The notes beneath the pieces are model-generated. The model did not search any database and was not told the DNA's origin. It saw only the letters and a list, made by a program, of their open reading frames with translations. A DNA stretch of 64,000 nt, from positions 82,321 through 146,320 of the forward strand of contig CAWIZT010000009.1 in the NCBI GenBank assembly GCA_963840705.1, given 5' to 3'. The DNA comes from an uncultured Actinomycetes bacterium. Its GTDB lineage: Bacteria; Actinomycetota; Thermoleophilia; Gaiellales; Gaiellaceae. Position numbers and translations under genes: made by a program. Below are positions 18,910-54,748 of the stretch, piece after piece (position 1 is the stretch's first letter; each line of letters begins with the position of its first letter).

Positions 18910-19341
18910 TCAGCCGGTGGTGCGGCCGGACACGGCCAGCTGGTTCTCGGCATGGACGATGCGCTGCTCGAGCTGCCACCGATCCGACTGCGACTCCCCC
19001 GCTTCGACCTTCTCCAGCTCGGTCTTCGCCGCGTCGAGCTGGTCGCGGGCACGCGCGTCGTCGATCTCCCGCACGTCCACCGCGTCGTCGACGAGCGCGA
19101 GCGCGCGGTCGAGCTCGACCTTGAAGAATCCCGGGCCGGTGGCGAACTGGAGGATCTCGTCCGGGCTGACGTGGATACGCGTCGACCCGGCCTTGAGCGT
19201 CGCGACGAGCGGCGCGTGCCGAGCGAGCACTCCGATCTCCCCGGCGGCGCCGGGTACGACGATCATCTGCGCCTCGCCGTCGAAGGCTGGGCCGTCGGGC
19301 GTGACCAGTGAGACGTCGAACTTCGGATAAACATCGGCCAT
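18910..19341 (-). CDS. atpC: F1 ATP synthase epsilon subunit
   Basis: 143 aa. LVTPDGPAFDGEAQMIVVPGAAGEIGVLARHAPL. Lies directly downstream of atpD. Confidence 0.9.
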   Translation of the reverse strand: MADVYPKFDVSLVTPDGPAFDGEAQMIVVPGAAGEIGVLARHAPLVATLKAGSTRIHVSPDEILQFATGPGFFKVELDRALALVDDAVDVREIDDARARDQLDAAKTELEKVEAGESQSDRWQLEQRIVHAENQLAVSGRTTG

Positions 19342-19353
19342 GGCTGCGCTCGA

Positions 19354-20793
19354 CTACGCCGCGACGGCCTCGGCCTGCCGCGACTTCTCGACGGCGTCCT
19401 CGATCGTCCCGACCATGTAGAAGGCCGCCTCGCCGAGCTCGTCGTGCTCTCCGTCGATGATCGCGCGGAAGCCGCGGATGGTGTCCTCGAGCTTGACGTA
19501 CTTCCCGGGCGTGCCGGTGAACTGCTCGGCGACGAAGTTGGGCTGGGAAAGGAAGCGCTCGATGCGCCGCGCCCGCCCGACCACGAGCTTGTCCTCGTCC
19601 GTGAGCTCGTCCATGCCCAGTATCGCGATGATGTCCTGCAGGTCCTTGTAGCGCTGGAGGATCTGGAGCACGTCCGTCGCCGTGGCGTAGTGCTCCTCTG
19701 AGACGATTCCCGGCTGCAGCGCCCTCGACGTCGAGTCGAGCGGGGATACGGCAGGGTAGATCCCCTTCTCGACGATCGACCGATCGAGGACGGCCGTCGA
19801 GTCGAGATGCGCGAAGGTAGCGGCCGGAGCCGGATCGGTGAGGTCGTCTGCGGGAACGTAGATCGCCTGGACTGAGGTCACCGAACCGGTCGTCGTCGAC
19901 GTGATCCGCTCCTGGAGCTGGCCCATCTCGGTGGCGAGCGTCGGCTGATAGCCGACGGCGCTCGGCATGCGGCCGAGCAGGGCCGAGACCTCGGAGCCGG
20001 CCTGCACGAACCGGAAGATGTTGTCGATGAAGAGCAGGACGTCCTGTCCCTGGTCGCGGAAGTACTCGGCCATGGTCAGCCCCGAGAGCCCGACACGAAG
20101 CCGCGCGCCCGGCGGCTCGTTCATCTGGCCGTAGACGAGCGCGACCTTGTCGATGACCTCGGACTCGGTCATCTCGATCAGGAGGTCGTTCCCCTCGCGC
20201 GTGCGCTCGCCGACGCCGGCGAAGACAGAAACGCCGCCGTGCTCCCGCGCGACGTTGTGGATCAGCTCCTGGATCAGCACGGTCTTGCCGGTGCCGGCGC
20301 CTCCGAACAGGCCGACCTTGCCTCCGCGAACGAAGGGCGCGATCAGGTCGATGACCTTGATGCCCGTCTCGAAGATCTCCATCTTCGGCGTGAGATCGCG
20401 AAAGGCAGGCGGGTCGCGGTGGATCGGCCAACGCTCGGTGCCCTCAGGGGCATCGCCCTTCTCGTCGATCGGCTCGCCGATCACGTTCCAGAGCCGTCCG
20501 AGCGTGGCGTCTCCGACCGGCACGGAGATCGGCGCCTCCGTGTCGACGCACACGCTGCCGCGCGCGAGACCGTCGGTCGAGTCCATGGCGACGGCGCGGA
20601 TGCGATCGTCGCCGAGGTGCTGCTGCACTTCCGCGATCAGCGTGCGCGTCGAGCCGCCCGGCTCGGGCACGTCGATGGAGAGGGCGCTGTAGATCGAAGG
20701 CAGCTTGTCGGTGAAGACGGCGTCGATGACGACACCCTTGATCTCGATGATCCGGCCGGTGTTCCCGGCGTCGCGCTCATGCGTTCTCGGCAT
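19354..20793 (-). CDS. atpD: F1 ATP synthase beta subunit
   Basis: 479 aa. [15 protein letters not shown] (Walker A) and the DELTDEDK (DELSEED-like) motif. Confidence 0.97.
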
Positions 20794-20922
20794 TCGACTC
20801 CTCGAGCTGCGGTTTTTGAAGAGAATCCTCGGCGCGCACGCGCGCCTCAGGAGCGCCTGAGTCTAGCCAAGGGGCACTCTTTTCGACGCGCGAGACGAGA
20901 CCGCAACTAACCGCCAGCCCGC

Positions 20923-21447
20923 TTGAACGTCTACCTGATAGTGCGAATAAGTCCGATCCTGCCCGAAATCTGCCATGGGACCCGGCAGCAGGTTTCTCTC
21001 CGCCTCGACATGGAGCTCTCGGAGCTGGAAGACGCCCTGCTGGCGGCGCATCTTCGAAAGTGCGCAGGTTGCTGGACATTCGCCGTTGATCTCGAGGCAC
21101 TGACGGAGAAGCTGCGCACAGCACCGCTCGCGGAGCCCTCCGTGCGGTTTCAGCTCCCACGCCGGCCCGCTCGCTTTGGCATGGCTCGCATCGGCATGGC
21201 TCGCGCGGGCACGGCGGCCGCCGCAGCGATCACCGCGCTCATCGCAGTTGTCAGCGTCTCGGGCCTCCATCCCTCGCCATCCCAGATCTCGGCTTCCGAG
21301 CTCCAGAGCGTGCGGGATCGTATGACCATGAAGGAACGGATGATGCAAGAGCTGGAGACCACCACCGTGCGGCAGGTGCAGGACGTCCCTCGAGGCCTGA
21401 GAGCCGCCAGGGACGCGACACTGCGTCCGAACCACGGCATGGGATGA
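20923..21447 (+). CDS. zf-HC2 (anti-sigma-factor-like) membrane protein, no adjacent sigma factor
   Basis: C...HLRKCAGC (Hx3Cx2C) followed by one TM segment (AAAAAITALIAVVSVSG). Start is TTG 20923 or GTG 20941. Confidence 0.6.
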   Translation: MNVYLIVRISPILPEICHGTRQQVSLRLDMELSELEDALLAAHLRKCAGCWTFAVDLEALTEKLRTAPLAEPSVRFQLPRRPARFGMARIGMARAGTAAAAAITALIAVVSVSGLHPSPSQISASELQSVRDRMTMKERMMQELETTTVRQVQDVPRGLRAARDATLRPNHGMG

Positions 21448-52957: not shown

Positions 52958-53224
52958 CTAGACGAGGACGTAGGCGAGCAGTCCGCCGATCAGGCCGTAG
53001 AAGACGACTGCCTCGGTGAGCGCGAAGCCGAGCCACTGGATGCCGGTGAGCTCGCCGCGCAATTCGGGCTGTCGCGCGACGGCCTGGATCATCGAGCCGA
53101 AGATGTTGCCGATGCCGATACCGGCCCCGAGCGATCCGAGGCCGATGCCGAGCGCGAGCGCGATGGCCTTCCCGGCATCGGCGCCGTCCTCGGCGGCGGC
53201 GAGGAAGAAGAACGAAGAGAGCAT
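52958..53224 (-). CDS. atpE: Fo ATP synthase subunit c
   Basis: 88-aa hairpin protein. ARQPE loop and the carboxylate-bearing second helix (FALTEAVVFYGL). Confidence 0.93.
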   Translation of the reverse strand: MLSSFFFLAAAEDGADAGKAIALALGIGLGSLGAGIGIGNIFGSMIQAVARQPELRGELTGIQWLGFALTEAVVFYGLIGGLLAYVLV

Positions 53225-53244
53225 GACAGTGATTCCTCCTTGGA

Positions 53245-54147
53245 TCAGTGGTCCGGCTCGATGGCCGAGCCGATGTAGATGGCGGACAGGGCGGCGAAGA
53301 TGTAGGCCTGGATGGAGACGACGATGACGACCTCGAAGAGGTAGAAGATCGTCGCGGCGGGCACTGCGATGACCGCCAGGAACACGTTGCCGATGACGAA
53401 GATGAGCCCGATGAAGGTGAGGATCAGCATGTGCCCGGCGAGCATGTTCGCGTAGAGCCGGACGGAGAGGCTGATCAGGCGCATGAACTGTCCCAGGATC
53501 TCGAGCGGGATGATCAGCGGCAACATCGCCTTCGGTACGTCGGGAATCCAGCTCTTGAAGTACTTGACGGGGCCGTTCCAGCGAATGCCCTCGAAGTGGG
53601 TGAAGAAGAACGTCATCAGCGCGAGTGCGAGCGTGACCGACAGCGTCGAGGTGGCGGCGAAGATCGCGAGCGTGGGCAGCTCGACCCCGCCGATCTCGAA
53701 ACGCTCGTCCGAGAGCGGCAGCGGGATGAACCCGAGGATGTTCACGACCCAGATGAAGATCATGAGGGTCGCCACGTACGGGAACCAGCGCCCGATCGCC
53801 TTCGTCGGCAGGCCCTGCTCGGCCACCTGCACCTGAGCGACCTCGTAGATCGTCTCACCGAGCGCCTGCTTGCGATCCGGGTCGCTGCCGACCTTGACGC
53901 GCATGAAGAGGATTCCGATCGCGATCGACACGAGCATCCCCAGGATCAGGTACGCGACGGCCTTGTTCACCGACATGTCGATCGGTCCGATCTTCAGCTC
54001 CGGCCCCCACGTCTGGAGCTCCCACTCGTGGGAGGGGTCGAACTCCTCCTCTTCCGCCGCGGCCGTCGGCTCCGCCGATCCTTCCGCGAACGCGGCTGCC
54101 GGCAGGATCAACGCAAAGAGGAGCAGGACGAGGGCAAGCCGTTTCAT
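53245..54147 (-). CDS. atpB: Fo ATP synthase subunit a
   Basis: LSVRLYANMLAGH (essential Arg motif). Signal-like N-terminal extension. Confidence 0.93.
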   Translation of the reverse strand: MKRLALVLLLFALILPAAAFAEGSAEPTAAAEEEEFDPSHEWELQTWGPELKIGPIDMSVNKAVAYLILGMLVSIAIGILFMRVKVGSDPDRKQALGETIYEVAQVQVAEQGLPTKAIGRWFPYVATLMIFIWVVNILGFIPLPLSDERFEIGGVELPTLAIFAATSTLSVTLALALMTFFFTHFEGIRWNGPVKYFKSWIPDVPKAMLPLIIPLEILGQFMRLISLSVRLYANMLAGHMLILTFIGLIFVIGNVFLAVIAVPAATIFYLFEVVIVVSIQAYIFAALSAIYIGSAIEPDH

Positions 54148-54542
54148 ACCTTCTTCGGCTCCGTGCCGAAGTACGCGGCGAGACCGACCCCGAGCTCGAC
54201 CGTATAGGCGAGCGCGTAGAGGCCCGCCGCGGCGATGCCGACGCGCTCGTCCCCAACCGTCACCGCGACGAGCGGTATGCCGACGAGCAGTCCGCGAGAG
54301 GTTGTGCCGATGCCGCGCATTCCTGCGGCGGCGAGGTTATCCGGGTCACTCGCGAACTGCGCCAGTACGAGCGCGAAGACCTGTGCCGCGGCCCAGAGGA
54401 CCGCCGCCAGCGCCCAGCCGGAGAGCGGCCAGCCGGCGACTGCGAAGACCGGAAGCGCGAGTGCGATCACCGAGCCCCCGGCGACCGCCGGCGCGATCCG
54501 GCCTGGCACGGGGCGCGGGCTCGAAAACAGCTTTGTGCTCAC
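54144..54542 (-). CDS. atpI: ATP synthase protein I-like membrane protein
   Basis: Hydrophobic about 130-aa product from GTG 54542 (GTGA overlap with the upstream stop). ATGA overlap with atpB. Called from position and hydrophobicity. Confidence 0.6.
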   Translation of the reverse strand: MSTKLFSSPRPVPGRIAPAVAGGSVIALALPVFAVAGWPLSGWALAAVLWAAAQVFALVLAQFASDPDNLAAAGMRGIGTTSRGLLVGIPLVAVTVGDERVGIAAAGLYALAYTVELGVGLAAYFGTEPKKV

Positions 54543-54748
54543 GCCGGGCGCTCGCGCGAGTAGACGACGTAGACGAAGAGCACTCCGAGCGGAATACCTG
54601 CGACGGCTCCGATGAGCAGGCCGATCTCCCACCCGCCGAGCAGCCAGCCGACGAACGCTCCTACGCCCATGGAAAGGGCGAGCGCCCCCAGCAGAAGTCC
54701 TGAGGCGGTGGCGAGCGAGTGAGGCGAGGAAGCCGCGTGCGGCGTCAT
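54539..54748 (-). CDS. AtpZ/AtpR-like small membrane protein (first gene of the atp operon)
   Basis: 69 aa with two TM helices (GLLLGALALSMGVGAFVGWLLG / LLIGAVAGIPLGVLFVYVV). Position is typical of the small pre-atpI protein. Confidence 0.55.
   Translation of the reverse strand: MTPHAASSPHSLATASGLLLGALALSMGVGAFVGWLLGGWEIGLLIGAVAGIPLGVLFVYVVYSRERPA

Follow-up and report, generated by a model that had tools for sequence, protein, structure and literature searches.

Separation of the genes for the gamma and beta subunits of ATP synthase, atpG and atpD, is known from cyanobacteria, Chlorobi, Bacteroidetes, Aquificae, and Beggiatoa; the same survey lists Actinobacteria among the unsplit lineages and finds the atp system tolerant of splits between any subunits (PMC4154653). 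We analyzed a stretch of 64,000 nt (hereafter, the window) from a soil actinobacterium of the order Gaiellales (Thermoleophilia, Actinomycetota), in which a 28,608-bp block of other genes, here called cargo, lies between atpG and atpD. A first-pass annotation of the window had described a split at this junction as otherwise confined to cyanobacteria and plastids, a view contradicted by the other lineages named above (PMC4154653). Far from being confined to the window genome, the split is old and order-wide; it adds a lineage to a known kind of operon split and does not constitute a new system. In the literature searched, no paper on this split was found for Gaiellales or Gaiella and ATP synthase. 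We consider it very probable that the locus reflects a real, ancient gamma|beta split common to nearly the whole order, with turnover of modules in a cargo slot and a promoter of its own for atpDC.

Genes were identified with Pfam, and canonical and alternate F1 subunits were told apart by the NCBIfam equivalog cut-offs. All eight core subunit genes (a, c, b, delta, alpha, gamma, beta, and epsilon) are present and intact on the minus strand. The first block comprises atpB (a, 53245-54147), atpE (c, 52958-53224), atpF (b, 52393-52953), atpH (delta, 51850-52383), atpA (alpha, 50299-51828), and atpG (gamma, 49402-50289), the last with 337.7 bits against a cut-off of 194 for TIGR01146. The second contains atpD (beta, 19354-20793), with the Pfam domain ATP-synt_ab at 5.3e-73 in addition to the N- and C-terminal domains and a GAGGAG Shine-Dalgarno sequence upstream on the same strand (~20801-20806), followed by atpC (epsilon, 18910-19341; ATP-synt_DE_N, 1.1e-18; TIGR01216, 91.6 bits, cut-off 67.25). 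The order atpB-E-F-H-A-G-D-C is thus retained on one strand across the gap (20794-49401), which interrupts the operon at atpG|atpD with about 25 genes. The Pfam coordinates agree with the first-pass description of minus-strand atpBEFHAG (49402-54147) and atpDC (18910-20793) in canonical order, and the size of the gap was reproduced. The same annotation had labeled two small hydrophobic open reading frames (ORFs) on the minus strand upstream of atpB as atpI (54144-54542) and atpZ (54539-54748). Size, hydrophobicity, and position fit these labels, and the putative atpI ORF is conserved across Gaiellales, but neither ORF matched a Pfam or NCBIfam model, and the two names are positional only. An N-type ATPase was rejected, as the window gamma subunit reaches 105 bits against the cut-off of 282 of the alternate/N-ATPase gamma model TIGR03323, a delta (OSCP) gene, which the N-type lacks, is present, and the gene order is canonical and not the N-type order beta-epsilon-I-R-a-c-b-alpha-gamma.

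To compare this locus with its relatives, we used the best 80 atpG loci from a scan with the window AtpG, restricted to one genome per species; the 80 loci come from 80 different assemblies and are referred to below by L numbers where needed. The nearest loci belong to Gaiellaceae/Gaiellales metagenome-assembled genomes (MAGs), with AtpG 62-88% identical to that of the window, followed by a group of Solirubrobacterales/Thermoleophilaceae at 51-57%. Window proteins were mapped onto these loci to measure atpG-atpD gaps, which gave 27 outgroup and 49 informative Gaiellales loci. In the Solirubrobacterales/Thermoleophilaceae outgroup the gap measures -7 to 205 bp in 27/27 loci, which implies that contiguity is ancestral for the class. 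In Gaiellales, atpG and atpD are apart at 47 of the 49 loci; wherever the split is seen, the halves are linked on the same strand, up to 29 kb apart. The gap is 6.7-9.4 kb long in 24 Gaiellales loci and contains one Opp-like peptide ATP-binding cassette (ABC) operon with a zf-HC2 gene, whereas two loci have a gap of ~2.7 kb (L048:2861-5654 and L046:944-3583), occupied in L048 by an opposite-strand NhaA-DsbA fusion gene. The two 'adjacent' exceptions have gaps of 14 bp (L047, 10894-10909) and 186 bp (L050, 10882-11099). In the remaining informative loci, the cargo reaches the contig end or continues past the 10-kb flank. The most frequent type of cargo has the orientation of the atp genes and the order permC-SBP-permB-D-F (SBP, substrate-binding protein; perm, permease), a gene of 119-137 aa, zf-HC2, and atpD. 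It is orthologous in most Gaiellales clades, and its permeases are 55-74% identical as compared with 66-89% for atpG, a similar divergence that fits a long vertical residence in the gap. The window is without this common operon. With contiguous operons in the outgroup orders and cargo at atpG|atpD in nearly all Gaiellales, the earlier proposal of an insertion into an ancestral operon is supported.

The window gap is the largest version seen, and its parts recur at the same place in other genomes. L083 and L086 lie on the same contig (ENA ERZ25039531 contig_9540), which belongs to the closest relative, and the AtpG of L086 is ~92% identical to that of the window. In L086, a single contig spans atpG to atpD, 16.5 kb apart, with the order atpH-atpA-atpG, SBP3-perm3B, SBP2-permB-permC-D-F, zf-HC2, lipoprotein gene, MoxR_a operon, and atpD. 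The window is an L086-type 16.5-kb core with two additional modules of ~6.3 kb, the MoxR_b operon beside atpG and a zf-HC2 gene with a second peptide importer (ABC#1) beside atpD, and both additional modules are found at the same atp junction in other Gaiellales. The junction formed by atpG, MoxR_b, DUF58, VWA, TPR, VWA, SBP3, and perm3B is present in 12 assemblies (L001-L005, L013, L014, L029, L036, L038, L040, and L053). The atpD-side junction, with inverted ABC#1, zf-HC2, and divergent atpD, recurs in L018, and the other end of the ABC#1 block adjoins atpG in L042. In between, window positions 36971-27177 are collinear with L083 at nucleotide identities of 90% and 80%. Cargo content agrees only imperfectly with the tree of Atp proteins described below, as MoxR directly follows atpG in several clades. 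The similarities are mosaic: for the window region 14487-20793, atpD and metH are nearest to L081 (97% and 95% protein identity), while the ABC#2 and MoxR_a genes (27183-36825) are nearest to L083/L086 (86-97%), where atpD reaches only 91% identity. Such a pattern suggests that recombination has taken place within the cargo slot, in keeping with a turnover of modules that possibly involves recombination across the conserved atp flanks.

Across 34 Gaiellales loci, window included, alignment of the 220 nt preceding atpD revealed a TANNNT element in 33, located 22-116 nt (mostly 54-86) before the start codon, with the consensus gCGCTtCGc-TAGACT-cCG; L047, with its 14-bp gap, is alone in having no element. 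The hexamer is an exact TAGA[CG]T in 22 loci and TAGGCT, TAAACT, TACGCT, TACACT, TACGAT, or TAGTAT in the same context in the other 11, while none of the 27 outgroup atpD upstream regions contains exact TAGA[CG]T. In the window, this predicted -10-like element of atpDC lies on the minus strand at 20857-20868, with the hexamer TAGACT at 20860-20865, 72 nt upstream of the atpD ATG. A G is found two bases upstream of the hexamer, which resembles an extended -10. TAGACT occurs once in the 64-kb window as compared with 6.6 times expected by chance, and the 13 occurrences of CGnTAGACT on both strands of 1.09 Mb of Gaiellales DNA are all located less than 200 nt upstream of atpD in sense orientation. 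TANNNT is the actinobacterial -10 motif, found at 91% of the transcription start sites of Streptomyces clavuligerus, where the -35 is much weaker (PMC6614810), and all variants of the element fit it. The 186-bp spacer of L050 holds the element as well. It is kept with co-oriented (L006, L083) and with divergent (window, L018, L085) upstream neighbors, and its presence whatever the orientation of the neighbor argues for a promoter over a processing site. In the window, atpD is preceded by a divergent neighbor and ~6 kb of opposite-strand genes, so that read-through from atpG is not credible there. The conserved element thus supports a promoter specific to atpDC, and the first-pass prediction of such a promoter in 20794-20922 gains support from both the divergent neighbor and the element at 20860-20865. 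Two further ideas about this region were discarded: the motif is not shared with the main atp promoter, its class being found in 4 of ~40 control regions upstream of atpI, and a 5' hairpin after the -10 element was dropped with a mean z-score of -0.6 over 33 loci. The convergent spacer at 27125-27200 likewise shows no more folding than shuffled sequence (z = -1.3).

Taken together, these data lead us to propose the following history. The Gaiellales ancestor would have gained an Opp-like peptide ABC operon and a zf-HC2 gene in the atpG-atpD spacer, and the gap would then have become a cargo slot in which modules of the peptide ABC plus zf-HC2 and MoxR-DUF58-VWA types were gained, lost, duplicated, inverted, and exchanged. 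The ATP synthase would be expressed from two transcription units. The first, (atpZ/I)-atpBEFHAG, would in the window probably run on into MoxR_b, because only 27-54 nt intervene, and the second, atpDC, would have its own promoter with the -10 element TAGACT (20860-20865), a leader of ~60 nt, and the GAGGAG ribosome-binding site. As in other lineages split at gamma|beta, the balance of alpha and beta would then rest on promoters of matched strength and on matched translation. The subunit-stoichiometry problem raised in the first-pass annotation therefore does apply here, but it is common to all such lineages and not special to this locus.

The order of events was examined on a bootstrapped neighbor-joining tree of the AtpB, AtpF, AtpH, AtpA, and AtpG proteins (65 taxa, 1402 columns, 100 replicates). 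Gaiellales are monophyletic in 100/100 replicates, the window groups with L001-L005 in 100/100, and L047 and L050 form a clade in 100/100. A small Gaiellales clade shows graded gaps of 14 bp (no element), 186 bp (TACACT element), and ~2.7 kb. The scenario of a promoter arising first and the insertion following, with L047 and L050 as basal lineages, was not retained, as the two are sister to all other Gaiellales in 0/100 bootstraps, although the tree is too weak to exclude it. On this tree, the 'adjacent' state of L047 and L050 more probably corresponds to a secondary re-joining.

Several points weigh against the reading of an old split with a cargo slot and a separate atpDC promoter. The join between MoxR_a and ABC#1 (~27137-27183) is seen in the window only, with no counterpart in another assembly, and an error-rich stretch at 28.1-34.7 kb shows that assembly quality is uneven. 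The aligned atpD upstream regions have no conserved -35, and simple sigma-70 and terminator consensus scans were silent at both junctions, as expected for an actinobacterium of 68% G+C. It is from sequence patterns that we infer the promoter and its activity, the extents of the transcripts, a transcript continuing from atpG into MoxR_b, separate expression of the two units, and the succession of evolutionary events. The ancestral state rests on a neighbor-joining tree of five Atp proteins whose deep branches are weak, so that one early insertion followed by loss cannot be told apart from several independent ones. With the co-oriented cargo of most Gaiellales (ABC operon, 137-aa gene, and zf-HC2, separated by short intergenic gaps), the proximity of MoxR_b to atpG, and the lack of terminator-like sites and of a conserved -35, one could also imagine that atpDC is mainly transcribed by read-through across the cargo, as part of a super-operon, and that TAGACT is an RNA-processing or regulator-binding site. 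We find this quite unlikely, since 6 kb of opposite-strand genes precede atpD in the window, L018, and L042, the neighbors are divergent in L082 and L085, and the element is kept in all of these loci for which the atpD upstream region was inspected (in L042 the contig stops short of atpD). Its fit to TANNNT with the G two bases upstream and its mostly 54-86 nt distance from the start codon are also promoter-like.

The same uncertainties of assembly, together with the MAG-type source of the contig, could point to an artefact, namely a chimeric contig from a genome whose atp operon is in reality contiguous: the ~50 single-base insertions at ~28.1-34.7 kb signal a poor local consensus, and the MoxR_a/ABC#1 join is unique to the window. 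Misassembly, a concern of the first-pass annotation, nevertheless appears extremely improbable, as both atp-proximal junctions and the collinear interior are found in independent assemblies (atpG-MoxR_b in 12, ABC#1-zf-HC2-atpD in L018, and 10 kb of the interior in L083/L086, where one contig spans the 16.5-kb version). The 47 split loci among the 49 informative Gaiellales include two records titled whole chromosomes (L006 on OY969787.1). Moreover, positions 27137-27183 join two convergent gene ends that share no repeat likely to mislead an assembler. A recently acquired island or mobile element in the atp operon of this strain would fit the G+C content of the block, which ranges from 63% to 72%, the affinity of cargo and flanks to different relatives, and the variation of module content between close relatives. 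We judge it very unlikely. The slot is occupied throughout the order with a cargo divergence similar to that of the atp genes, the tRNA and Rfam scans of the window came back empty, and neither an integrase or transposase among the Pfam matches of the cargo block nor flanking direct repeats were found. The comparison of block and flanks, one of the checks proposed in the first-pass annotation, shows that the G+C content at third codon positions (GC3) of the cargo (0.79-0.95) matches that of the atp genes (0.88-0.93), the G+C swings arising at codon positions 1 and 2. Since some bacteria carry an additional atp operon, N-type or duplicated (PMC4154653), the split copy might be a decaying or accessory remnant beside a second, complete, and contiguous operon that does the work. 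This is highly improbable given eight intact core genes with canonical equivalog scores and the order-wide conservation of both the arrangement and the atpD element. The window atpD is 97% identical to its nearest homolog in protein and 91% in DNA, which denotes purifying selection, and no close second copy is present among the best 80 atpG loci.

The cargo of the window was resolved gene by gene. Next to atpD, the first zf-HC2 gene (20923-21447, plus strand) encodes an anti-sigma-like protein that scores just under the gathering score of Pfam zf-HC2 (3.1e-4) and below the cut-off of an NCBIfam anti-sigma model (3e-4). It is divergent from atpD across 129 bp and opens the ABC#1 unit, with the same position and orientation in L018. 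ABC#1 (21571-27137, plus strand) is a complete Opp/Dpp-type peptide importer with one SBP (SBP_bac_5), two permeases (BPD_transp_1, one with OppC_N), and two ATPases (ABC_tran and oligo_HPY each), as assigned with Pfam; its best NCBIfam match is OppA, with a score below the cut-off. Its orientation is opposite to that of the atp genes, and orthologous blocks with proteins 62-79% identical are found at the same place in L018 and L042. The frameshifted MoxR_a operon (27183-32522, minus strand) encodes MoxR, DUF58, a 299-aa protein, VWA, a 202-aa protein, and VWA, in collinearity with the intact L083/L086 operon, to whose MoxR its own is up to 97% identical. It is followed by a small lipoprotein-like gene (32624-33063, plus strand), a frameshifted homolog of a 152-aa L083 ORF with signal peptide and lipobox, and by the second zf-HC2 gene (~33140-33620, minus strand), also frameshifted, whose translation matches the ORF at L083 3348-3821 (plus strand) carrying the H-x3-C-x2-C motif 'HLRQCGDC'. 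ABC#2 (33656-39626, minus strand) has the full gene set of an Opp-like operon, arranged as SBP2, permB, permC, D, and F, as established from Pfam, tblastn against the intact L083/L085/L086 genes, and nucleotide alignments; frameshifts affect SBP2, permB, and F but not permC and D, and the signal-peptide ATG of SBP2 lies at 39626. The two genes that follow on the minus strand, perm3B (40157-41131) and SBP3 (41276-43030), both identified with Pfam and initially taken for a permease and a binding protein of an 'ABC#3', form a tandem duplicate of the SBP-permB pair of ABC#2 (repeats 36817-39194 and 40156-42503 in a constant register of 3339-3340 nt, 70-75% identical). The same duplication is present in L086 and so predates the split between the window and L086 genomes. 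The ~530 bp between perm3B and SBP2 (39627-40156) contain no convincing gene, the sole ORF being arginine-rich with a poor codon-position signal, and align to the equivalent L086 spacer with many indels.

Closer to atpG, a 242-aa ORF (43138-43866, minus strand) is coding-like with a GC3 of 0.79 and has no Pfam or NCBIfam match. The MoxR_b operon (43933-49374, minus strand; Pfam AAA_3 at 7.5e-59, DUF58, VWA_2, and TPR_11) begins 27-54 nt past the atpG stop codon and consists of MoxR (48310-49374), DUF58 (47370-48296), an uncharacterised gene (~46394-47365), a VWA gene, a TPR-like gene (44926-45558), and a second VWA gene (43933-44919). This inventory agrees with the first-pass count of two MoxR/DUF58/vWA operons, of which the one at 27183-32522 is frameshifted, and of two zf-HC2 genes; its three peptide ABC loci, on the other hand, reduce to two operons, ABC#1 and ABC#2, the latter with a duplicated SBP-permease pair. 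A 399-aa ORF (31886-33085, plus strand) was rejected as a gene: it has no family match, is 58% identical to the antisense of MoxR_b, and represents an antisense artefact of the MoxR_a MoxR gene, of a kind typical of high-G+C DNA. Between 27 and 31 kb, several long ORFs are composites, and the gene calls L083 3213-3761 and L085 8168-9346 (both minus strand) may be antisense artefacts as well. Each peptide ABC module of the gap is paired with a gene for a zf-HC2 membrane protein, which in most Gaiellales is the immediate upstream neighbor of atpD, with further examples at L006:17938-18417 and L017:17612-18088; no sigma-factor gene was seen beside the zf-HC2 genes of the gap.

The frameshifts of the window are confined largely to one stretch. 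Compared with L083, ~50 single-base insertions are present at 28100-34712 and none in the adjacent 2 kb; one 5.5-kb alignment contains 34 insertions and 5 deletions, not at homopolymers, whereas indels are balanced and at noise level in comparisons elsewhere in the window. The broken genes are abcF, the second zf-HC2 gene, the lipoprotein gene, MoxR_a, DUF58_a, and two further genes. In abcF, MoxR_a, and DUF58_a, mismatches still cluster at third codon positions, with no rise in divergence. L086 has a frameshift-dense stretch of its own (1300-6600) over atpA, atpG, SBP3, and perm3B, where the window is intact, and long-read MAG assemblies of this kind appear prone to localized stretches of errors. 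The frameshifts at 28.1-34.7 kb are most likely single-base insertion errors of the local consensus in a long-read assembly, and the isolated frameshifts in permB at 37270 and near the SBP2 signal peptide at ~39552 may share this cause. Pseudogenization of ABC#2 and MoxR_a is unlikely in view of the excess of insertions away from homopolymers, the third-position mismatches, the unraised divergence, and the similar stretch in L086. For the annotation of long-read MAGs, the fragmented cargo genes of this window are accordingly not to be taken as pseudogenes.

Outside the gap, a conserved 198-aa ORF without family match (18255-18851) follows atpC in the window, L083/L084, and L085, while L082 has a metallophosphatase gene in its place. 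In nearly all Gaiellales loci, the atp genes have a family-4 glycosyltransferase gene upstream of them (56057-57190 in the window), an association that presumably resembles the rfe/wecA-atp neighborhood of mycobacteria.

These results add an actinobacterial order to the gamma|beta-split lineages, with coexisting states of 14 bp, 186 bp with the element, 2.7 kb, 7-9 kb, 16.5 kb, and 28.6 kb, a coexistence of intermediate and derived states that most known cases do not offer. With such graded states one can ask how the interruption of an essential operon sensitive to stoichiometry is tolerated and whether insertions are permitted by an internal promoter, and the atpD element provides a concrete promoter prediction, open to testing, for a soil lineage that is abundant but poorly studied. 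As a more speculative extension, which we deem unlikely, the atpG|atpD gap could be a selected, long-lived cargo slot, with a cargo perhaps tied to ATP synthase. If so, the independent atpDC promoter would make the site permissive for insertions, and the conserved essential flanks could act as homology arms for swaps of modules between lineages; MoxR-VWA chaperones co-transcribed with atpBEFHAG might assist assembly of the membrane complex, and zf-HC2 proteins might tune the atpDC promoter. No evidence here supports a functional link between cargo and ATP synthase. In domain content and gene order, the cargo is ordinary for MoxR-DUF58-VWA (Bat-like) operons and Opp/Dpp importers alike, and differs from them only by its site inside the atp locus and its recurrent zf-HC2 partner.

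When compared with known split systems, the Gaiellales arrangement is closest in form to the atp1/atp2 organization of cyanobacteria and plastids, where the break also falls exactly at atpG|atpD, beta and epsilon form their own unit, and the remaining order is kept (PMC4154653). However, the cyanobacterial loci can be up to 6 Mb apart, as in Nostoc PCC 7120 (PMC4154653), whereas the Gaiellales halves are collinear on one strand at a distance of 7-29 kb, with recurring cargo. As in Chlorobi, Bacteroidetes, Aquificae, and Beggiatoa, the same junction, which is the commonest break point, has been broken independently (PMC4154653), but those lineages often show further splits or rearrangements, while in Gaiellales the halves are intact, linked, and co-oriented. 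A short-range split with few intervening ORFs is also known from Geobacter sp. FRC-32, with 4 ORFs, although the survey places the delta-proteobacterial split at atpE|atpF and not at gamma|beta (PMC4154653), and neither order-wide conservation nor cargo turnover is reported there, unlike in Gaiellales. What makes the Gaiellales split unusual is the combination of linked and co-oriented halves, the recurrence of the same two classes of cargo, and the survival of graded gap sizes.

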